A DNA stretch of 45,011 bases from Miltoncostaeaceae bacterium (GTDB taxonomy: Bacteria > Actinomycetota > Thermoleophilia > Miltoncostaeales > Miltoncostaeaceae): assembly GCA_044342355.1 (NCBI GenBank), contig JBIIQA010000001.1, forward strand, positions 1-45,011. The letters are read 5' to 3'. The notes below the pieces were generated by a model. It saw nothing but the letters and a program-made list of their open reading frames with translations, was not told where the DNA came from and did not search any database. Position numbers and translations under genes: made by a program. Each line of letters starts with the position of its first letter. The first letter of the stretch is position 1. Of the stretch, positions 6,868-45,011 are shown piece after piece.

Positions 6868-12171
<5,304 letters not shown>

Positions 12172-34349: not shown

Positions 34350-34361
34350 CCTCACCGGGCA

Positions 34362-34862
34362 ATGGGCAAGAAGGCCAACTCCAAGGGCGCCGCGAAGGTG
34401 CCGCCGCGCAAGGACATCGCGCAGAACCGCAAGGCGCTGCACGAGTACGAGATCTCGGATCGATACGAGGCGGGCATCGCTCTCACCGGAACCGAGGTGA
34501 AGGGCCTGCGCGAGTCCGGAGCGATGATCCGCGAGGCCTACGCCCAGGTGATCGACGACGAGGTGTTTCTCGTGGGCGCGCACATCAGCGACTACGGGCC
34601 GGCCGGTGGCCGCGGGCACGACCCGCAGCGCACGCGCCGCCTGCTGCTGCACCGCCGTGAGATCGACAAAATCGCCGGAAAGGTTGCGGAGAAGGGCGTG
34701 GCCCTCATTCCGCTGCGCATGTACTTCAACGACGACGGCCGCGCCAAGATCGAGCTCGGGATCGGCCGCGGCCGTACGCAGTACGACAAGCGCGTGGCCA
34801 TCAAGGACCGTGAGATGAACCGTGAACTGTCGAGGGCCAACGCCCGCCGCGGCCGCGGCTGA
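34362..34862 (+). CDS. smpB: SsrA-binding protein SmpB
   Basis: NRKALHEYEI...GIALTGTEVK...RTRRLLLHRREI...IPLRMYF...KIELGIGRGRTQYDKR. Confidence 0.95.
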   Translation: MGKKANSKGAAKVPPRKDIAQNRKALHEYEISDRYEAGIALTGTEVKGLRESGAMIREAYAQVIDDEVFLVGAHISDYGPAGGRGHDPQRTRRLLLHRREIDKIAGKVAEKGVALIPLRMYFNDDGRAKIELGIGRGRTQYDKRVAIKDREMNRELSRANARRGRG

Positions 34863-34882
34863 TCACCGACGGGGGAGAGCAC

Positions 34883-35338
34883 ATGAGGAACGCAATCGTC
34901 GCGACCGCCGCCATCGGAGTGGGCAGCCTCGTCATGTTCGCGGGGTCGGCGGCCGCCGCGCCCGCGAGCCTGCCCCGGCCGCAACTGACGGGGTACCAGA
35001 TGGTCAACCGGTTCATGGCCAACCTGGAGTCGGGCAACGTGGCCAGACTCAACGCGCTGCTGGCGCCGTCATTCGTCGTGCAGCGCGCGAATGGCACATG
35101 GGCGGCCAAGCCGGCCTACATGAAGTCGCTTCCGCGGGTCGCGTCGTATGTCATCAGCGCGTCGTTCTCGACGTACTCCGCGGGGGCCCTGACGGTGCGA
35201 TGGGAGCTCGCGGCCAGCGAGACGCTGCCCGGCGCGCCGGTGGGCAGTACCCCTGCGCCGCGACTGTCCACGTTCATCTGGACGCCATCCGGGTTCCGGC
35301 TCACCTCACACGCCAACTTCAACCCGCCGGTGTCGTAG
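34883..35338 (+). CDS. secreted NTF2/SnoaL-like (DUF4440-type) small protein
   Basis: Signal peptide MRNAIVATAAIGVGSLVMFAGSAAAAP, then about 120 aa with an NTF2-like pattern (FMANLESGNVARLNALLAPSFVVQRANG). The family call is tentative. Confidence 0.55.
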   Translation: MRNAIVATAAIGVGSLVMFAGSAAAAPASLPRPQLTGYQMVNRFMANLESGNVARLNALLAPSFVVQRANGTWAAKPAYMKSLPRVASYVISASFSTYSAGALTVRWELAASETLPGAPVGSTPAPRLSTFIWTPSGFRLTSHANFNPPVS

Positions 35339-35356
35339 GGGCGCGGGCGCCGTGCG

Positions 35357-35404
35357 CCCCGACATCAGGCTCACCGCCGACGGCACATGCTCCGGGGCGG
35401 CGAA
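35357..35404 (-). pseudogene. 48-bp relic of a lutC 3' region (encodes ..PEHVPSAVSLMSG..)
   Basis: 43 of 48 nt are identical to 37514-37561 inside lutC, in the same orientation. No start and no continuation are present. Confidence 0.75.
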
Positions 35405-35505
35405 ATCGGGGACGAGAGGTACGTGAGGCGACGCCATGCCCGAGCAGGCATCGGCCTCTCTATGCCCACGGCCCATGTACGGCCAGCGGGGAGCGCATTG
35501 AGTGA

Positions 35506-37401
35506 TCACTTCTCCATTGGCCATGCAGACGAACGCGTGAATGCATCGGCGTAGGCGATGCGCGGGTTCGTCGCGCTCACGGGCTGGAGCGGGTCGGTGG
35601 CGATGCGCCGCACCACAAGAATCTGGGCGCGGCGCATGACGGCAGGGGTGACGGCGCGGGTGCGGCGCACCACGCTCGATACGGTGACGTTGACGCCCTT
35701 GGCCCCGGGCCACGGAATGGACGGCGCAACCGAGGTCGCCCCGAGCCTGGTGTTCCCGACCATCGATCCCGCCAGCTGCATGATGCGCTTTCCCGTGACG
35801 GGGTCGCGAAGGATCATCGTGGTGCGAACCCGGCATGCGCGGGCGGGGTTACTCGCCACCGTCAGCTGCGCCCTGACGAGGTAGACACCCCGGTCCGGAT
35901 CAAAGGCAAGCCGTCGCGGGTCGTCCTGCATGAAGTTGCCCTCGCACGGTGTGCGGTAGTTCGCCACGAAGGGGTTGGTGCCCGACGGCCCGACCAGGTT
36001 GGCTGCGCCGAAGGCGACCTGCTGCGCGAAGAAGCCCACCACGGTGGTCGACGCGTTCGACGCGCTGGCCACTCCCGTGCCGCGGTTGGTGCCCGCGCCC
36101 CCGGTCCCGGTGGCCCAGGCCACCTGGCCGTTCGGCTGCACCCGTGCAACCAGCACGCTGCTGCCCGAACCGGCAGGCAGCGGCGTTCCGCCGAAGGTCG
36201 CGCCGCCCGTGCCGGAGTAGAACCCGGTCACCGTGGCCGATCCGTCGGGGTGCGTTGCCACGGCCTGGCCCCGGTCGGTACCGGTGCCGCCGCCGCGGAG
36301 TGCCCAGGCGAACTGACCCCTCGGGGTCACCTTTGCCACGAAGATGTCGTTGCCGCCAGCTGTCTCGAGGGCAGTGCCGCCCAGGCGCGCCGGGGTGCTG
36401 CTGAAGAAGCCCGTCACCACGGACGAGCCATCACCGAGTGCCGAGACGCCCATACCCCAGTCCACGCCCGTGCCACCGGCAGAGGTTGCCCACGCCACGC
36501 TGCCGCCCGCGGTCACCTTGGCCACCCAGGCGTCCTTGTCACCGGCGCTGCCGAGCAGGCGCCCGCCCAAGGTCATGGTTCCCGTGAACAGCCCGGTCAC
36601 CACCACGCCGCCCGTTGGCAGTGCCGATACCCCGTAGGCGCCGTCGTCGCCGGTCGGCGAGCCCCCGGGGATTGCCCAGGCGACCGTGCCGCTGGGCATC
36701 ACCCGGGCGATGAACGCATCCCAGCCCCCGGTGCTCGTGAGGGTGGTGGATCCGAGCGTCATCTGGCCGTTGAACTCGCCCACCACGATCGTCGACCCGT
36801 CGGCAAGGGCCGCAACCGACCTGGCGCCCGCCTTCTGGCCGACCGCCCCGGTGGTGCCGGGGATGGCCCAGACCACGCTGCCGGTGGGGGTCAGCTTCGT
36901 GACGAAGGCGTCCCAGCCCGTGGACCCGCCTCCGCCGGTGAGCGTGGTGGACCCGAAGCTCGCCGGCCCCACGAACTTGCCCACCATCACGGACGACCCG
37001 TCGGGCAGCGTGGCCACCCCGGTTGCCTCGTCGGCCCCGGCGCCGCCCACCCGCGTGGTCCACTGGAATGCCCCGCGCTCCGTGACGCCGGTGGCGAACG
37101 CATCGGTGCCCGACGCCCCTGCCTGCGTGAGCGTGACCGGGATAGGTGTGATGATATTGCCCACCACCACGGACGACCCGTTCGGACCGCGGGCGACTGC
37201 CGTGCTCCAGTCGGTGCCGGTGCCGGAAACGGTGGTGGCCCAGGGCACGCCCACGCCCGTGGGCAGGGAAGCGGCCAAGGCGGGAGGCGTGGTGACGGCC
37301 GCGGCGCCGACCGCGATGAGCCCGGCGGCAATGGCAGTGCGCGCGTGAATGGGAATCCTCCTGGGGCGCGGGGACGGGGGATGCTCCGAAGAGCATGCCA
37401 T
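35506..37401 (-). CDS. secreted SBBP-type beta-propeller repeat protein with an unassigned C-terminal domain of about 170 aa
   Basis: Signal-like N-terminus (RRIPIHARTAIAAGLIAVGAAAVTTPPALAAS). About 8 repeats of about 50 aa, with the pattern D-A/I-F-V-x-K-V/L..G..xWA..GG.g.D.g.gVa.L.DGS..VtG.F. GTG 37425 is an alternative start. Confidence 0.8.
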   Translation of the reverse strand: MACSSEHPPSPRPRRIPIHARTAIAAGLIAVGAAAVTTPPALAASLPTGVGVPWATTVSGTGTDWSTAVARGPNGSSVVVGNIITPIPVTLTQAGASGTDAFATGVTERGAFQWTTRVGGAGADEATGVATLPDGSSVMVGKFVGPASFGSTTLTGGGGSTGWDAFVTKLTPTGSVVWAIPGTTGAVGQKAGARSVAALADGSTIVVGEFNGQMTLGSTTLTSTGGWDAFIARVMPSGTVAWAIPGGSPTGDDGAYGVSALPTGGVVVTGLFTGTMTLGGRLLGSAGDKDAWVAKVTAGGSVAWATSAGGTGVDWGMGVSALGDGSSVVTGFFSSTPARLGGTALETAGGNDIFVAKVTPRGQFAWALRGGGTGTDRGQAVATHPDGSATVTGFYSGTGGATFGGTPLPAGSGSSVLVARVQPNGQVAWATGTGGAGTNRGTGVASASNASTTVVGFFAQQVAFGAANLVGPSGTNPFVANYRTPCEGNFMQDDPRRLAFDPDRGVYLVRAQLTVASNPARACRVRTTMILRDPVTGKRIMQLAGSMVGNTRLGATSVAPSIPWPGAKGVNVTVSSVVRRTRAVTPAVMRRAQILVVRRIATDPLQPVSATNPRIAYADAFTRSSAWPMEK

Positions 37402-37429
37402 TACCTCGTGTCCGTGTGTCTGCACCGGC

Positions 37430-38005
37430 CTACCGGATGATGACGACGTGCTCCGCGAGGGCGCCGTGCGCCCCGAGAGTGGAGATCTTCTCGATGTCGC
37501 TGGTGCGGCTGGGCCCCGACACCAGGCTCACCGCCGACGGCACGTGCTCCGGGTTCGCGAAGGTCTGCGCCAGTGCCTCACCGAGGGTGGCGACGATGCG
37601 GTCCTCGGGCAGCAGGGCGACGTGGTATCGGCTGGTGACGTCGAGGCCACGGCCGTGCAGCGGGGATGCCGCAAGCACCACCGTGCCGCGCTCGGCAACG
37701 GCGAGCGATGGCACGGTCACCCCGCACACGTCCTCCGGGCCCTCCAGTCCGAGCACCTCACGCCGCCCGAGCCCTGTGGGCCAGCGCAGGACGTCGATCC
37801 CCTCGCGGCGAAGGGCGTCGTCCAGCCCGACGTCGTCGACGATCGGGTCGGATGCCAGGACCGCGCGCACCACGCCGTGGTCGGCCATCCACGTGGCTGC
37901 GGCGCGCGCGGCGGATGTGCGGCCCACCACCTCGGAGGACGCCTTGCGCCGCGTGAGCGATGCCACCATCTCGTCCACCAGGGCGCTCACCGGCGCGGCG
38001 GCCAC
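37430..38005 (-). CDS. lutC: lactate utilisation protein C (LUD domain, YkgG-like)
   Basis: C-terminal SGPSRTSDIEKISTLGAHG signature of the LUD family; last gene of lutABC. Confidence 0.85.
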   Translation of the reverse strand: MAAAPVSALVDEMVASLTRRKASSEVVGRTSAARAAATWMADHGVVRAVLASDPIVDDVGLDDALRREGIDVLRWPTGLGRREVLGLEGPEDVCGVTVPSLAVAERGTVVLAASPLHGRGLDVTSRYHVALLPEDRIVATLGEALAQTFANPEHVPSAVSLVSGPSRTSDIEKISTLGAHGALAEHVVIIR

Positions 38006-40113: not shown

Positions 40114-40461
40114 CTAGGAGGGTGGCCCGACCTCATCGTGCAGCGCGCGCAGCGCGGCCACGCCCCCCTCCGCGTAGGCGATCCAGTCGGCGCCCTTGCC
40201 CTGCTCCCCGTGCTCGGCGAGTTGCGCCTCCCACCAGGCGATCTCCGCCGGCAGCGGGTCTGCCCCGGGGGCAGCGAGCCGCAGCGCATCGCGGGCGTCG
40301 GCAAGCGCCACGGCCGCGCCCTCGCGGCGCTTCACCTCGAGGAGATGGCCCGTCTGGTCGTCACCGATGCGGCAGAGCGCGCCACCACCGGTCGCCTCGG
40401 CGAGCGCCTCACGGGCGGCATCGAGGCGCGCGAGCGTGATCACCAGGCGGTCGTCATCCAC
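40114..40461 (-). CDS. hypothetical protein (115 aa) heading the lut operon
   Basis: Strong third-position GC bias in this frame. It ends 10 nt before the lutA start. No recognisable motif. Confidence 0.55.
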   Translation of the reverse strand: MDDDRLVITLARLDAAREALAEATGGGALCRIGDDQTGHLLEVKRREGAAVALADARDALRLAAPGADPLPAEIAWWEAQLAEHGEQGKGADWIAYAEGGVAALRALHDEVGPPS

Positions 40462-40534
40462 CGCGCCAGCGTACCGCGGCGTGAGGGGCGGCCACGCCGC
40501 CAGTGATACCCTTGCAATCAGCAGGAACCTTCAC

Positions 40535-40899
40535 GGGCCCGAACCAGTTTCGACGGGGTGGCGAAGGATTGGCAAGCGAGCCGCGGACCCTGAGGACCGC
40601 GTTACCAACAGGGAACCAAACGTAGCTGCGGATTCTCGCCAGCTCGCTCTCGCCGCCTAGTAAGCGGTACTGAGAGTCGTCGGCCCTCCCTTCGGATCAC
40701 GAGGGGGATCACCGGCGTCGCATAGTGATCCTGGCCCCGAGGCAGTGTTCCTCGGCCAAGGGGCGAGATTTCAGGAGGGACTGGGGGTGGAGTGATTTGC
40801 CGGAGATGGCACCCACCCCGAGACACACATCATCGGCTGCGCTCGGAGAAACCCATCTGGAAACGCCTTCGGACGCCGGGGCAGTGCCGGCCGGGTCCA
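40535..40899 (+). ncRNA. ssrA: tmRNA (SsrA), 365 nt, CCA not encoded; predicted tag ADSRQLALAA (or AADSRQLALAA)
   Basis: 5' GGGCCCG (40535-41) pairs with CGGGUCC (40892-98), including G3-U70, and the discriminator is A 40899. GUUUCGACGGGG matches the conserved 5' region. The tag ORF is GCG GAU UCU CGC CAG CUC GCU CUC GCC GCC UAG UAA (40628-40663). The 3' end reads UUCGGAC-GCCGG-GGCAGUG-CCGGC. smpB lies 5.7 kb upstream. Confidence 0.85.
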
Positions 40900-41099
40900 T
40901 AGGGGCCTCTTCAGCAGAGAGTTCTGAAGAAGCCCAAAATGAAGAAAACAAGCGGGAGCTGAGGGGGCCAACTGGGGCTCCCTCAGTCGTTGTGGGGCCC
41001 GGCGGCGCCCAGAGGCCCATCGGGGCGGCGGATTTGGCGCGTGCAAGCACATCGGCCCACGTCAACGTGCCCGCTGCGTGGCGGGCGAGGCGGGGCTAG
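40899..41099 (+). pseudogene. 5'-truncated copy of the small acidic protein family (lacks about the first 34 codons; ATA where copy 3 has an in-frame ATG)
   Basis: ..ASSAESSEEAQNEENKRELRGPTGAPSVVVGPGGAQRPIGAAD.. aligns with the 43743 and 44798 genes. Homology begins exactly at the tmRNA 3' end. Confidence 0.6.
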
Positions 41100-41194
41100 G
41101 CGGGCTGGAAGCCCGGTGGGGCCTTGCCGACGGCGTAGCCGCCGCCGAGCAGGAAGGCGCGCCGCCGTCGGCGCATCAGGCTTGCAAACCGCCC

Positions 41195-41356
41195 GTCATC
41201 AATGGTGATCTCGATAACGCCGAGACGCGTCAGGACCCGATCTTCGACCTGCACGTGCCGGTGAGCGTGCCGGGGGTGGACCCGAAGCTGCTCGACCCCA
41301 TTCAGACCTGGCCGGACCCCGCAGCGTTCGAGGAGACCGCCCGCAAGCTTGCGGGC
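41195..41356 (+). pseudogene. pckA: internal C-terminal fragment of ATP-dependent phosphoenolpyruvate carboxykinase
   Basis: VINGDLDNAETRQDPIFDLHVPVSVPGVDPKLLDPIQTWPDPAAFEETARKLAG aligns with E. coli PckA ..[39 protein letters not shown]...AETLAKLF. There is no upstream PckA body, and the last roughly 15 residues are missing. Confidence 0.8.
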
Positions 41357-41360
41357 GGGC

Positions 41361-43508
41361 CTACTTCACGCGCCTGGTCACCACCGACTGCGCCACGATG
41401 GTGCCATTCTTCGCGCGTGCGGAAGTGGTGACAGTCCAGGTGCCCTTCTTCACACCAAGCCTGCAGGCGAAGGTGCGCTTGATCTTCTTCCCCTTGCCCG
41501 TGGCCTTCACAGAGCACGTGGCGCGCGCAGCCTTCTTGCCCACAGCAGTCGCTGACTGCCCGATGCGAGTGGCACCTGCAGGCAGCGTGCCCGTGGTGGT
41601 GCAGACGGTGCCCTTGCATGTCATGCGCACTTTGAGCGCTGCGGGCTGCGCGGCGGAGTTCGGTGGCGCCGGGGCGGGCGCGGGCGCGGCGGAGTCACCG
41701 GCTGTGGGAACCACCTGATTGGACGGCTCGGACGCAGGTGAGGTGCCGGCCGCGTTGGTCGCAGTCGCGGTGAAGGTGTGCGCCACTCCGTTGGCGAGGC
41801 CCGAGATCACGCACTGGGTGGCAGGGGGCGTGATGGTGCAGGTGCGCCCGCTGGGGTTCGCGGTGACGGTGTACCCGGTGATCGAATCATCCGCAAGCGG
41901 CGTCACCGACACGGTCGCCTGCGCATTTGCGGCCGTGGCGGTGGGGGCGCCGGGCCGGGCCGGCACCAGGACGACACGGGTGATGAATGCATCGAGGGGC
42001 CCGAGGCTGGTGAGCGTGGTTGATCCGAAGGTGGCGGCGCCACCGGAAGACCCCCCAAATACTCCTGTGATGATCGCTGACCCATCGGCGAGCACCGCGG
42101 CGGCCGTGCCGTAGTCATCCCCCGATCCGCCGGCCCTGGTTGCCAGTGCATGCGCGCCGTCGGCCTTCACCTTGGCGACATAGATATCCCTCTCCCCGGC
42201 GCTGGTGAGCGTGGTTGATCCGAAGGTGGCGTCGAGGGGACCGGGAGACCCCACAAGAGGCCCCCCAAACCCGCCCGTGATGATCGATGAGCCATCGGCA
42301 AGGGCCGAGACGCTCGTGACGTCGTCGTTACCAGTGCCCCCGGCGCGCGTTGCCCATGCGAAGGGGCACCCTCCGACATAGCAGGTGCCTGTCTTGGCGA
42401 CGAAGACGTCCATGTCTCCAGCGCTTGGAAGCTCGACCACACCAGACACTGTCTCGAACCGAGCGGTTGGCCGGAATTGTCCCGTGACAACCGATGAGCC
42501 ATCAGCGAGCGCCGCGACAGATATGCCTCGTTGGAGGCCCGTGCCCCCGGCTGTTACGGCGCCTTCGTAGAAGGTGCCATTGGCGTTCAGCCGGGTGACG
42601 AACATATCCTCGCCGACGGCGCTTGTGACGAGGGTGCTCGATCCGAAGGTGGCCGTTTCCTGAAAACTCCCCGTGACGATTGAGGATCCGTCGGCGAGTG
42701 TTGAGACTCCATAGCCCACGTCGTACTCCGGACCACCGGCCTTGATCGCCCAGACGAAGGAGCCAGTGGCGCTCACCTTGGCGACGAAGATGTCGGAATA
42801 TGTCTCGTCGTACGTATCGTCGCTGGTGAGGGCCGTGGGTGTGGGCAGAGTGCCGAAGGTGGCGGTTTGCGCGAACGAACCTGTGATGATCGAGGAGCCG
42901 TCGGCAAGCACCGAGACGCCGTAGCTGTCGTCGTAGTCCGGACCACCGGCCTTGATCGCCCAGACGAAGGAGCCAGTGGCGCTCACCTTGGCGACGAAGA
43001 TGTCCGTCTCGCCCTGCCACTCGAGCTCCGTGGGAGTGGGAGTGTCGAAGGTCGCGTCGCCCATGAAGGAGCCTGTGATGATCGAGGAGCCATCGGAGTG
43101 CACCGAGACGCCATAGCCGAAGTCATTTGATTCCCCCCCGGCCCGCACCGCCCAGGCGTAGGAGCCATCGTCGTTCACCTTGGCGACGAAGATATCTTCC
43201 TGCCCGGCGCTGGTGAGGCTCGTGGGTGTGGGAGTGCCGAAGGCGACGGTTCCCTGGAAGGACCCGGTGACGATCGATGAGCCGTCGGCGAGGGCCGCGA
43301 CGCTGCGGGCCTCGGTCTGAACCCCAGCGCTCCCGGCCTGTGTTGCCCACGGGAAGGAGGCCGCGGCAGCGGTTGACGTGCCCGCCATGATGGCGAAGAG
43401 GATCGCGAACAGCGCAACGGTGCCGACCAAGGCGCGGTGCACAACGCTCACAGGAATCCGCTTGGGCATTGCCGAGTGCGCCAGCGCAGCCAACCTCATG
43501 CCGCTCAT
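41361..43508 (-). CDS. secreted SBBP beta-propeller repeat protein with FN3-like domain, Pro/Ala linker and Lys/Cys-rich C-terminal module
   Basis: Signal peptide ..MPKRIPVSVVHRALVGTVALFAILFAIMAGTSTAAAAS. About 8 repeats (DIFVAKV..G.. WA..AGG...D.GYGVS.LADGSSI.TGSF). FN3-like PGAPTATAANAQATVSVTPL...HTFTATATNAAGTS. The start is ambiguous (43538, 43508, 43499 or 43469). Confidence 0.8.
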   Translation of the reverse strand: MSGMRLAALAHSAMPKRIPVSVVHRALVGTVALFAILFAIMAGTSTAAAASFPWATQAGSAGVQTEARSVAALADGSSIVTGSFQGTVAFGTPTPTSLTSAGQEDIFVAKVNDDGSYAWAVRAGGESNDFGYGVSVHSDGSSIITGSFMGDATFDTPTPTELEWQGETDIFVAKVSATGSFVWAIKAGGPDYDDSYGVSVLADGSSIITGSFAQTATFGTLPTPTALTSDDTYDETYSDIFVAKVSATGSFVWAIKAGGPEYDVGYGVSTLADGSSIVTGSFQETATFGSSTLVTSAVGEDMFVTRLNANGTFYEGAVTAGGTGLQRGISVAALADGSSVVTGQFRPTARFETVSGVVELPSAGDMDVFVAKTGTCYVGGCPFAWATRAGGTGNDDVTSVSALADGSSIITGGFGGPLVGSPGPLDATFGSTTLTSAGERDIYVAKVKADGAHALATRAGGSGDDYGTAAAVLADGSAIITGVFGGSSGGAATFGSTTLTSLGPLDAFITRVVLVPARPGAPTATAANAQATVSVTPLADDSITGYTVTANPSGRTCTITPPATQCVISGLANGVAHTFTATATNAAGTSPASEPSNQVVPTAGDSAAPAPAPAPPNSAAQPAALKVRMTCKGTVCTTTGTLPAGATRIGQSATAVGKKAARATCSVKATGKGKKIKRTFACRLGVKKGTWTVTTSARAKNGTIVAQSVVTRRVK

Positions 43509-43742
43509 GTTGGGCAACGTCGAGCCTGGCTCGATCATCACCGATCGCCGACAGGAGCATTGCGAGGCTTTGCGCACGGGGGGCCTTCTTGACGGGACCT
43601 GCCCCCGGGCCTCCATCGATTGGCGAGGCGGCGGTCTGTGGGTGTGGGCCGATAGGCCAGCCTACGAAAACGCCGCAAAAGAATATCAAATGGATCAGGA
43701 GGCGTGGGAACCCGGACGGGGTGCACTCGGAGCCCCCTGGCC

Positions 43743-44012
43743 ATGGGGTGTGTGCAGGACCCGGGTAAGCGCGTGCGGACGGTCTGGCTGCACGCGACAT
43801 ATTCGTCAGTGCCAAAGGGGCGCTCGACTACTTCAGAAGAGACAATCGAAGAAGACAAGCAGGATCTGAGGGAGCCAACTGGGGCTCCCTCAGTCGTTTC
43901 GGGGCCGATTGGCACCCAAACCCCCATCGCCGGCGGCGACACGCAGACGCTGTCGGTGGGCACCGTGACCCTGCCGAAGGTCGCCATCGGACCGATCCCG
44001 GTGACCGGCTAG
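43743..44012 (+). CDS. small protein (89 aa), member of a local paralogous family; unknown function
   Basis: MGCVQDPGKRVRTVW...TSEETIEEDKQDLREPTGAPSVVSGPIGTQTPIAGGD...VTG. The C-terminal half has very high third-position GC in this frame. Differences from the other copies include synonymous changes. GTG 43704 is an alternative start. Confidence 0.6.
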   Translation: MGCVQDPGKRVRTVWLHATYSSVPKGRSTTSEETIEEDKQDLREPTGAPSVVSGPIGTQTPIAGGDTQTLSVGTVTLPKVAIGPIPVTG

Positions 44013-44112
44013 GCCGCCTGGCCGCAATGTGAGCGAAGCCGGTAACCGCGTGTGAAGCATTTCGGTGCCCGCGACCGGGCTCGCCGCGGTCTCGAACGAA
44101 ATGTGCGGGGGT

Positions 44113-44140
44113 CCAAGAGGGCCGGAGACGGCCCTCTTGG
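44113..44140 (+). terminator. GC hairpin ccaagagggccg-gaga-cggccctcttgg followed by tgtgggc
   Basis: Perfect 12-bp stem. Homologous to the hairpin at 44723-44750, with one compensatory base-pair change. Confidence 0.5.
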
Positions 44141-44215
44141 TGTGGGCGGGGCCCATCCCCGCGGACCCGCAGTCCAGCGGGGGCGACGTGGGTAGGCCGG
44201 CCACGTCGCCGTGCG

Positions 44216-44221
44216 TAAACT
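44216..44221 (+). promoter_or_regulatory. possible -10 hexamer TAAACT preceded by a perfect 10-bp inverted repeat (44182-44191 / 44201-44210)
   Basis: TAAACT lies 52 nt upstream of ATG 44273. ggcgacgtgg-N9-ccacgtcgcc ends 5 nt upstream of it. The RBS GAAAGGAA sits at 44259-44266. Confidence 0.3.
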
Positions 44222-44272
44222 GACCCAAATGGGTCTACCGCCCTAGCAGCCCCCCAAAGAAAGGAATCCGTC

Positions 44273-44695
44273 ATGGGTAGGCATGACGATCAGTTGACTG
44301 CGGCGATGGCTGATCTCCGCGCCCGTGCAGAGCAGCACGGCGAGCCGTCCCTCAGGGATGGCGTTCTCCACTTCGGAGACGCAGCGATTCCCCGTCCCGA
44401 CTTCCCCATCGTCACTGGTGTGGAGGACCAGTTCGGGTGCACGGTCTCGATCTTCGTGGTTCAGGGCGATGGCTTCGTGCGCGCCACGACCAACATCCAC
44501 CGGGACGAGGTCCGCGCGCTCGGGACCGAACTGGACCCGACGGGTCCGGTCATCGGCCCGATCAGCGGCGGAGAGTCCTACCGGGGGCCGGCGGACATCC
44601 TCGGCGTGATGCACGACACGTATTACGAGCCCATCGTGGATGGCGGCGGCACCGTGATCGGTGCTTTCCTCGTCGGCTACCCACACGAGGACTAG
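44273..44695 (+). CDS. stand-alone cytoplasmic Cache-type ligand-binding domain protein (Cache_3-Cache_2-like), 140 aa
   Basis: CTVSIFVVQGDGFVRATTNIHRDEVRALGTELDPTGPVIGPISGGESYRGPADILGVMHDTYYEPIVDGGGTVIGAFLVGY matches the sensor module of chemoreceptor and histidine-kinase Cache domains (tiF...fvRvaTnv...RavGT.l....G.sY.G.a.ilG..y.t.Y.Pi.d..G.viGalfVG). Good RBS. No TM segment or output domain. Confidence 0.7.
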   Translation: MGRHDDQLTAAMADLRARAEQHGEPSLRDGVLHFGDAAIPRPDFPIVTGVEDQFGCTVSIFVVQGDGFVRATTNIHRDEVRALGTELDPTGPVIGPISGGESYRGPADILGVMHDTYYEPIVDGGGTVIGAFLVGYPHED

Positions 44696-44722
44696 GGCTT
44701 CAAGAAGGCGATCGCGTGTGCA

Positions 44723-44750
44723 CCGAGAGGGCCGGAGGCGGCCCTCTCGG
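44723..44750 (+). terminator. GC hairpin ccgagagggccg-gagg-cggccctctcgg followed by tgtgggcc
   Basis: Perfect 12-bp stem 28 nt after the Cache gene stop; paralogue of the hairpin at 44113-44140. Confidence 0.55.
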
Positions 44751-44797
44751 TGTGGGCCAGAATCATGCGACGCGGGTGCGCTGAAAATGGCTTGGCT

Positions 44798-45011
44798 ATG
44801 CGGTGTGTGCAAGACCCCGGTAACCGCGTGTGCAAACGGTGGGTACGCGGGAGCGAGATCAACGCCCTGGTGGGCCGCAGGCCTACTTCAGAAGAGACCC
44901 ATGAGGGCCTCTTCAGCAGAGAGTTCTGAAGAAGCCCAAAATGAAGAAAACAAGCGGGATCTGAGGGAGCCAGCTGGGGCTCCCTCAGTCGTTTGCGGGC
45001 CGGCTCCGGAA
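44798..45011 (+). CDS. small protein family member, third copy (3' end beyond the window)
   Basis: MRCVQDPGNRVCKRW...LLQKRPMRASSAESSEEAQNEENKRDLREPAGAPSVVCGPAPE.. is open to the window edge. The N-terminus is homologous to the 43743 gene and the middle is near-identical to 40899-40990. Confidence 0.55.

Follow-up and report, generated by a model that had tools for sequence, protein, structure and literature searches.

The ssrA locus of a Miltoncostaeaceae bacterium (assembly GCA_044342355.1, contig JBIIQA010000001.1) raises the question of what kind of DNA begins right at the end of the gene for transfer-messenger RNA (tmRNA), and how it came to be there. The window analyzed here is the whole stretch of 45,011 nt (positions 1 to 45,011 of the contig). 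An original prediction, made from the letters alone, had described its last 4.1 kb as an accessory array anchored at ssrA and starting right after the tmRNA discriminator base, and this description holds, as relatives differ in content there. We propose that recombinase-less cassettes probably form a tandem array here, anchored at the nucleotide that follows the discriminator, and that the 4.1-kb tail is its proximal part. The tail and the corresponding loci of relatives have a recurrent unit architecture; the units are restricted to the ssrA strand downstream of the gene; near-identical strains diverge at the cassette boundary CCA|T; cassettes shift in position between relatives; and no recombinase gene is found nearby. 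The parts of the tail concerned are the following.

40535-40899, plus strand: ssrA, the tmRNA gene (Rfam RF00023).
40887-40914, plus strand: ssrA-side junction (attB/attL-like), with the acceptor strand CCGGCCGGGTC as left 'arm', the spacer CATAGG and arm B GGCCTCTTCAG; the boundary is 40899|40900.
40900-40995, plus strand: trailer copy 1, long type (nhmmer trailer profile, E = 2.2e-23; fold z = -2.84), with the terminator hairpin at 40959-40986.
43715-43898, plus strand: unit c2, with a P arm at 43715-43843 (nhmmer E = 2.5e-24) and a short trailer (E = 1.7e-14) whose hairpin lies at 43866-43893.
44026-44147, plus strand: decayed unit, with a partial P arm (profile positions 42-103, including CGGTAACCG; E = 5.9e-6) and a hairpin-B terminator variant at 44113-44142, followed by GGTGTGGGC.
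44700-44757, plus strand: short trailer-like segment directly upstream of the P arm of c3, with a perfect 14-bp hairpin B at 44721-44752, followed by GGTGTGGGC (fold z = -5.64).
44764-44901, plus strand: P arm of unit c3 (nhmmer E = 1.9e-36), with heptamers at 44773, 44804, 44827 and 44840, the palindrome CGGTAACCG and a small hairpin.
44900-45011, plus strand: junction of c3 and trailer copy 3, with the spacer CATGAG, arm B GGCCTCTTCAG and a hairpin at 44961-44988, running off the window end.

The ssrA gene and its 3' trailer

A full-length match to the Rfam tmRNA model (RF00023, model positions 1-374, 87.1 bits) spans 40535-40902; the gene itself terminates at 40899 with the acceptor strand CGGGTCC and the discriminator A, the CCA not being encoded. 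It is 90-94% identical to ssrA of the related loci L001, L003, L004, L006, L008, and L009 (relatives are given by such numbers throughout). What follows the discriminator is a repeat of approximately 100 nt, present in three copies in the window (40897-40999, 43804-43906, and 44899-45001). Its hairpin core was observed three times with zero occurrences expected by chance and none elsewhere in the 45 kb, and the repeats of the array as a whole, GC hairpins included, are confined to the tail. Each trailer consists of arm B, a loop and arm A' (hairpin 1), then a terminal hairpin and TCGTT. A scan of the genome collection with the hairpin core returned nine contigs, all from Thermoleophilia/Miltoncostaeaceae metagenome-assembled genomes (MAGs), and in six of the nine the hairpin lies directly 3' of the tmRNA gene; the same ssrA-adjacent trailer was found in L001, L003, L008, L015, L018, L020, and L023. 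Because the hairpin directly follows the tmRNA gene in six relatives, the element first taken for a 5'-truncated small gene is, judged by sequence comparison, the conserved ssrA 3' trailer.

The terminal hairpin is conserved as a structure. Over 21 distinct copies 98.3% of its positions are paired, as against 39-62% in slid controls, compensatory changes occur at 7 of 11 pairs (none of 500 shuffles scored as high), and folding z-scores range from -2.8 to -5.6. It is thus stable, GC-rich, structurally conserved and located directly downstream of an RNA gene, as an intrinsic terminator or ssrA 3' trailer should be. The T-tract is weak (TCGTTT), so that a consensus terminator scan does not call the hairpin, and consensus terminator and promoter scans were uninformative in this GC-rich DNA. 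The predicted GC hairpins followed by GGTGTGGGC are present at two places, 44113-44147 and 44723-44757, and are stem variants of the terminal hairpin; the one in the decayed unit (z = -3.94) has a stem that is a compensatory variant of hairpin A.

Open reading frames (ORFs) traverse all three trailer copies and have the peptide LREP(T/A)GAPSVV in common, and the original prediction counted three copies of a small gene here. Reading the codons of the hairpin stem yields the peptide LREPTGAPSVV. In seven homologous copies there is either no start codon or an in-frame stop 0-60 nt upstream, the peptides downstream of the shared stretch are unrelated among copies (17-422 codons), and 1-nt indels separate the trailer copies. 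The GC content at third codon positions (GC3) of these frames is 0.67-0.74, as against 0.80-0.91 for real genes of the window, and they matched nothing in Pfam, NCBIfam, or PHROG. A small-gene family was rejected on these grounds: the three supposed copies are non-coding junction and trailer sequence, and a supposed decayed gene remnant at 44026-44147 is a partial P arm plus hairpin. This corrects an annotation trap, in which palindromic GC-rich terminators are misread as a conserved 'small protein'.

Repeat units and junctions

Trailers that do not adjoin ssrA are each preceded by a conserved P arm of about 140 nt, ending in CAGAAGAGACC-CA; P arm and trailer together form a unit of about 240 nt. 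Units occur in 12 of 16 related Thermoleophilia/Miltoncostaeaceae loci. An nhmmer search of 222 kb of related loci with profiles built from the alignment gave 19 P arms (E-values down to 1e-36) and 32 trailers, all of them on the ssrA strand and downstream of ssrA, none upstream. In eight units from different genomes the block GACCCCGGTAACCGCGTGTG precedes CTACTTCAGAAGAGACCCA by exactly 70 nt (69 in one case). The P arm also contains a palindrome, CGGTNACCG in the unit family and CGGTAACCG in unit c3 and the decayed unit, and four direct copies of the heptamer GKGTRCR at conserved positions (24 observed, 2.1 expected).

As RNA, the P arm folds no better than its shuffles (z = +0.65), the RNAalifold covariation term is -0.66, no well-supported helix is present, and Rfam gave no match at E <= 1. 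Since it is unstructured as RNA and lacks an Rfam match, the P arm looks like a protein-binding region acting at the DNA level. Two other identities were rejected: a structured or tRNA-like RNA ending in CCA, on the fold score, the negligible covariation and the Rfam result, and a diverged tmRNA 3' half, on the same Rfam result and the lack of a visible alignment.

In the alignment of all junctions, the tmRNA acceptor strand or, alternatively, arm A (CAGAAGAGACC) forms the left side, each with CCA at its end, and the right side is T-C/G-A-R-G-G followed by arm B (GGTCTCTTCTG), an inverted copy of A. The cassette boundary is CCA|T, reading CCA|TCARGG; in unit c3, arm A occupies 44889-44899 and the CCA ends at 44901. 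Arms A and B of long-type and internal units are complementary at 8-11 of 11 positions across the 6-nt spacer, and those of the ssrA-side junction of the window at 5 of 11. The arms are nearly invariant in sequence, whereas the terminator stem covaries, the pattern to be expected if they are half-sites recognized by a protein and not a purely structural stem. Inverted arms, a 6-nt spacer and strain breakpoints at that spacer are together suggestive of a core site of the tyrosine-recombinase type.

Short-type junctions carry neither arm B nor the subsequent A'-like repeat and could be derived from long ones by loss of the segment of about 38 nt, B-loop-A', between two T(C/G)AAGG repeats. In unit c2 the A arm and the junction are degenerate (…CAGAAGAGACAATCG), and this junction is probably inactive and fixed. 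L005 and L017 are 99% identical over 2.6 kb, and three or four changes, including an indel, fall within about 14 nt past CCA|T, in the spacer and the start of arm B (L005 149-165, L017 128-145), which suggests local hypervariability at the proposed crossover. A 15-bp motif, TTCAGRSMGMRKCCA, has been reported upstream of the ssrA direct repeats of Dehalococcoides islands (PMC3146451); it has a TTCAG-N7-CCA frame in common with the A arm TTCAGAAGAGACCCA (44883-44901 in the window), which may be a coincidence.

Comparison with related loci

The cassettes delimited by the units are about 0.7-3 kb long. The closest comparison is with L016, a metagenome contig that represents a strain-level relative of the window. 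The 300 nt to the left of c3 are 99.3% identical in the two (25/25 in every bin up to the junction), the 110 nt to the right are 67.8% identical, and L016 extends about 850 nt past the junction, into a different next cassette. In the comparison with L001, trailer 3 of the window is 100% identical over 113 nt to the ssrA-adjacent trailer of L001, and the sequences to the left are unrelated (51.6%); compared with L001, the window therefore has an insertion of about 4.0 kb (40900-44901) that separates ssrA from this trailer.

Cassettes also change position and neighbors. A cassette with a flavin adenine dinucleotide (FAD)-dependent monooxygenase, 95-96% identical between loci, occupies the first place behind ssrA in L008 and L007; in L005 and L017 a unit precedes it, and in L002 its place is distal. 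Two neighboring cassettes of L002 are separated in L008 by an additional SnoaL cassette, and cassette 1 of L015 is homologous to cassette 2 of L023. The final trailer and flank of L002 correspond to the ssrA-adjacent trailer and flank of L009, where the order is ssrA, short trailer, katG flank. L023 has three cassettes of about 1.1-1.3 kb between ssrA and a glutaredoxin/SpoU flank, which is common to L018. A profile search found no intact units in L018, L022, or the more distant L024. The inspection of relatives' ssrA neighborhoods that had been recommended for this locus therefore turned up both occupied and less-occupied configurations (L001; L009; L018, L022). Weak remnants are visible downstream of ssrA in L018, namely a P arm at 7688-7723 (E = 0.006) and a trailer hairpin at 8965-8998 (E = 0.013), and suggest decayed former cassettes. 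A metagenome scan with a two-motif pattern returned three contigs.

L001 contains a second, 87-nt copy of the ssrA 3' part (1293-1379), 92% identical and without the last ~5 nt, located about 4 kb downstream of the intact gene and adjoining a 67-nt fragment of a Cache gene (1203-1269). It is a classical attR-like scar, different in kind from the CCA|T units, and it shows that conventional events have also occurred in the clade.

Cargo of the arrays

Three cargo genes or gene fragments lie between the units of the window, and the identities first proposed for them were confirmed by Pfam and NCBIfam.

41177-41353, plus strand: C-terminal fragment (about 59 codons) of pckA, encoding ATP-dependent phosphoenolpyruvate carboxykinase (NCBIfam NF006822, E = 8.6e-15).
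41361-43508 (longest ORF to 43616), minus strand: gene for a secreted protein with beta-propeller (SBBP-like) repeats and FN3 (Pfam fn3, E = 8e-7; NCBIfam SBBP lipoprotein, E = 2.9e-9).
44273-44695, plus strand: gene for a stand-alone sCache_3_3 domain protein of 140 aa (Pfam E = 1.5e-23 and 1.9e-20).

The pckA fragment corresponds to positions 449-507 of 537 in the NF006822 profile and 435-463 of 465 in Pfam PEPCK_ATP, and the match covers residues 34-92 of the frame 41078-41431. Directly after it, GCGGGCGGGCCTACTTCA at 41341-41368 overlaps the stop of the SBBP gene; it is similar to the final ~18 nt of the P arm/A arm (GGGCG..CGCCTACTTCAG) and might represent an older junction that was truncated. 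The SBBP/FN3 gene has internal repeats of about 200 nt and a GC3 of 0.80; its origin by recent duplication of the SBBP gene upstream of ssrA (35509-37527) was rejected, the identity to this paralog being only 38%. The compositional contrast anticipated for the tail proved weak, its GC content (0.63-0.71) being comparable to that of bins elsewhere in the window.

The closest homolog of the Cache gene on a long contig (L026, 10001-10429; 70% identical) lies between yqeY/gcvH and icd and adjoins the dcw cluster, a core context without units nearby; a 67-nt fragment of the gene is also part of the L001 array, as noted. The copy in the ssrA array looks like a captured chromosomal gene. This core context, together with the stranded pckA piece, suggests that the arrays may capture ordinary chromosomal genes.

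Cargo in relatives comprises MazE-type and PHD-type toxin-antitoxin pairs, carbonic anhydrase, alpha/beta hydrolase, multicopper oxidase, FAD monooxygenase, SnoaL-like proteins, Fic, LacI, unknown lipoproteins, and occasional insertion sequence (IS) elements. Toxin-antitoxin pairs (MazE-type, PHD/YefM-type, HipA-HTH) are the commonest content directly after ssrA (L001, L015, L019, L020, L023, L024), mostly transcribed towards it.

Search for a recombinase and a vehicle

The tail had been suspected to be an island inserted by a tyrosine integrase, none being visible in the window. The latter point stands: no recombinase was found among the genes of the window, read by eye with gaps filled by Pfam. 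The classical island does not, as neither the window nor the 4-10 kb that follow ssrA in the examined relatives yielded a tyrosine integrase. In particular, a Pfam search of the concatenated array ORFs from nine loci, which extend about 2-5 kb past ssrA, gave no recombinase domain, and six further neighborhoods (L018-L024, precomputed Pfam, 10-kb flanks) had none among the genes called up to about 6-10 kb from ssrA. Neither recombinases of the tyrosine or serine type nor HUH enzymes or dedicated transposases turned up in the window, the ORFs of the nine loci and the six neighborhoods; the IS elements seen, DDE_Tnp_1 in L003 and IS21 in L015, are unrelated insertions. An autonomous cognate element, with the same att site and an integrase, was found neither in about 16 loci nor in IMG/VR, PLSDB, and INPHARED, and scans of viral contigs with a P-arm 16-mer, the hairpin and the core gave only chance 17-18-mers or nothing. 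The direct repeats that had been looked for do bound the modules. They consist of the 3' trailer and an element-borne arm, and not of a displaced tmRNA 3' segment, of which, as originally stated, the window contains no second copy (repeat search).

Proposed mechanism and alternatives

According to the model, a cassette would start with a copy of the ssrA trailer, contain one or two cargo genes and end with the P arm of about 140 nt, arm A and CCA. Where two cassettes, or ssrA and the first cassette, meet, A or the acceptor strand, the 6-bp spacer CATSAR and B would form a recombinase-type core site, and cassettes would enter and leave by site-specific recombination across this spacer, which overlaps the tmRNA discriminator. 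A tyrosine recombinase or a large serine recombinase, supplied in trans from another locus, would catalyze the exchange. The trailer at the left end presumably replaces the displaced terminator, restoring 3' processing and termination of ssrA after each insertion, much as islands that target tRNA genes restore the tRNA 3' end, and the P-arm repeats and palindrome may serve as accessory protein-binding sites.

A bolder version, which we advance tentatively as a possibility, would make this a dedicated integron-like gene-capture platform of freshwater Thermoleophilia, with a recombinase acting in trans to insert and excise cassettes of about 1 kb after the discriminator, each carrying a unit of about 240 nt and a replacement ssrA terminator. 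Such an array could also recruit chromosomal genes, as the Cache gene, the pckA piece and the toxin-antitoxin pairs might illustrate. If true, the platform would have a mechanism parallel to that of integrons but no relationship to them, and current finders of islands and integrons would not see it.

Several points weigh against the cassette model. As no recombinase was found near the arrays, the catalytic step is purely inferred; no excised circle or read-level polymorphism was observed, and no unit was found on a phage, plasmid or viral contig (IMG/VR, PLSDB, INPHARED) that could be a vehicle. At ssrA junctions the left arm fits A at only 4-5 of 11 positions, near chance. Many junctions are of the short type without arm B, implying that B is dispensable or that these junctions are dead. 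The heptamer motif was derived post hoc from sequences that are homologous to one another. Finally, every comparator is a contig from a MAG or a metagenome, and such assemblies can be chimeric at repeats.

The alternative that survives best, and that we regard as rather unlikely, is that the modules are leftovers of integrase-bearing ssrA islands and the array an immobile graveyard of fixed scars. Accumulation of this kind beside tRNA and tmRNA genes is described by the tycheposon model, and the classical displaced ssrA fragment of L001, the degenerate junctions of c2, of the decayed unit and of the L018 traces, and the gene fragments stranded in arrays (the pckA piece, the Cache fragment) are what it would leave. 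It fits less well with the uniformly small size of the cassettes, the good conservation of the P arms, and the lack of any integrase or integrase fragment among the called ORFs of about 25 cassettes in 12 arrays (no six-frame pseudogene search was made); moreover, the difference between strains 97-99% identical maps exactly to CCA|T, implying recent exchange. This account is nevertheless hard to separate from the cassette model short of a recombinase or read-level data.

Less probable again is that the ssrA terminator region and an adjacent regulatory segment were duplicated and that the mosaic arose at a permissive intergenic hot spot through the usual processes of homologous recombination, duplication and indel formation. 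The trailers do look like functional, covarying terminators, which any preceding gene could use; homologous exchange can take place between repeats of 100-240 nt; and the DNA upstream of ssrA varies between relatives as well. We nonetheless consider this explanation unlikely, as it does not account for a conserved, unstructured 140-nt P arm attached to unrelated cargo, for inverted A/B arms with a constant 6-nt spacer, or for the strict single orientation and exclusive placement downstream of ssrA, and no mosaic P arm is seen at the breakpoint between the window and L016.

Non-autonomous transposon-like elements would be a third source, either with B…A inverted repeats and 6-7-bp flanking duplications (CATSARG) or as HUH elements inserting 3' of CCA, with the transposase elsewhere. 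Each cassette does have B at its start and A, the inverted copy of B, at its end, the hexamers that flank it resemble each other or are identical (CATCAG on both sides in L015 and L020), all copies have a single orientation, and there are subterminal hairpins. A site-specific recombinase produces a shared spacer equally well, however, insertion is limited to a single site type, and no associated transposase was found, those of L003 and L015 being unrelated, which makes this origin quite improbable. To paralogous small protein-coding genes (truncated, full, decayed and at the window edge) among accessory genes we give practically no credence: their shared open frames are the stem codons and fail as genes on every ground given above, and the sequence lies directly 3' of the tmRNA discriminator in many genomes.

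Relation to known systems

The tmRNA gene is the most enriched known integration target of genomic islands (PMC4383910). In Dehalococcoides, 16 of 31 ssrA islands carry a module with a CcrB-like serine recombinase, and 15 of 31, without an integration module, were interpreted as cis-mobilizable (McMurdie et al., 2011, PMC3146451); the islands are about 10 kb or more (PMC3146451). The likeness lies in tandem modules directly downstream of a single-copy tmRNA gene, bounded by direct repeats and driving diversity between strains, about half of the Dehalococcoides ones having no integration genes. There, however, 20 bp from the ssrA 3' end make up the repeat and insertion occurs in the T-loop, whereas here the boundary follows the discriminator, the repeat is the trailer, every module has a 140-nt arm, modules are about 1 kb and none contains a recombinase. 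Tandem co-oriented modules flanked by att-type repeats, in which no recombination genes were found, correspond to the cis-mobilizable element (CIME) type and to accretion arrays.

Crossover subsites known for tRNA and tmRNA genes (tDNA) lie inside the gene, in the anticodon loop, the T loop or the T/acceptor junction (Hudson, Lau and Williams, 2015, PMC4383910). The arrays resemble the tDNA islands of Islander in having an intact tmRNA gene at one end, foreign cargo and direct repeats, and in that the element restores the displaced sequence. Islander islands leave a displaced tDNA fragment and are required to have an integrase gene (PMC4383910); in the window there is neither an integrase nor a tDNA fragment beyond the CCA, L001 alone having one. 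Current detection needs both, and arrays lacking them would therefore be missed. Compared with known ssrA islands, the boundary after the discriminator, an identity block wholly within the trailer, one 140-nt arm per module, modules of about 1 kb and the lack of detected recombinase genes set the arrays apart.

The tycheposons of Prochlorococcus have tyrosine or large serine recombinases, replication modules, and partial tRNA copies as separators (bioRxiv 10.1101/2020.12.28.424599). As in the arrays, material accretes beside a tRNA or tmRNA gene and the most recent additions lie closest to it, degenerate elements accumulate together with host DNA that was co-transferred, and the host is a streamlined aquatic bacterium; they differ in that no mobility genes were seen here and the separators are trailer-plus-arm units.

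Integrons are similar in their cassettes of about 1 kb with one or two genes and a recombination site of their own at one end, in unidirectional arrays, in the frequency of toxin-antitoxin pairs, and in a recombinase not encoded by the cassettes. The differences are the mixed orientation of the cargo and the anchor, here the 3' end of an RNA gene and not attI. No intI was found beside the array, where lutABC and smpB lie upstream of ssrA and no integrase occurs within 10 kb, and the attC structure (R''/L''-L'/R') with its GTTRRRY core is absent from the boundaries, which show CCA|TCARGG with the 11-bp arms CAGAAGAGACC and GGTCTCTTCTG instead. Recombinase-less modules bounded by short sites and moved in trans are also known from the staphylococcal cassette chromosome (SCC) and pseudo-SCC arrays at the 3' end of rlmH (orfX) and from the Xer-dependent dif modules. 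There, too, modules accumulate at one place, which is either a fixed site on the chromosome or the 3' end of an essential gene; hosts, sites and enzymes (CcrAB, XerCD) differ, and the A/B arms presumably bear no resemblance to the XerC/XerD half-sites of dif.

In an abundant freshwater lineage of uncultured actinobacteria, small single-function modules turn over exactly at the 3' edge of ssrA, and the arrays are a possible route of gene flow where prophages and plasmids are not seen. The defined site, with 11-bp arms, a 6-bp spacer, and a 140-nt arm carrying heptamers and a palindrome, offers a handle for finding the recombinase; if found, this would be a new pair of site and enzyme that inserts DNA beside an essential RNA gene and leaves the gene undamaged.

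DNA upstream of ssrA

The upstream part of the window has a housekeeping organization with glyA, the atp operon, mdh, secA, prfB, ftsEX, an S41 peptidase gene, the gene for RNase R, and smpB (34350-34859). After smpB come a DUF4440-like gene, an SBBP-repeat gene and minus-strand lutCBA; the DUF4440-like gene and the SBBP-repeat gene, of 673 aa, fill the smpB-lutC interval (34826-37527). In several relatives smpB adjoins lutC directly, and L022 has a different gene, of 630 aa, in this interval.

ARAGORN did not report the tmRNA of the window, despite the Rfam match, and ARAGORN-based annotation may overlook the tmRNA genes of this lineage systematically. Lineage specificity extends to the interval from lutA to the ssrA promoter (40128-40498 in the window, with equivalents in L019, L020, and L022). 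The window has there an ORF of 115 aa without a family match (40114-40461, minus strand), L020 a gene of 188 aa and an fn3 gene, and L019 and L022 a fatty-acid desaturase gene. Conservation returns only 15-36 nt upstream of ssrA.

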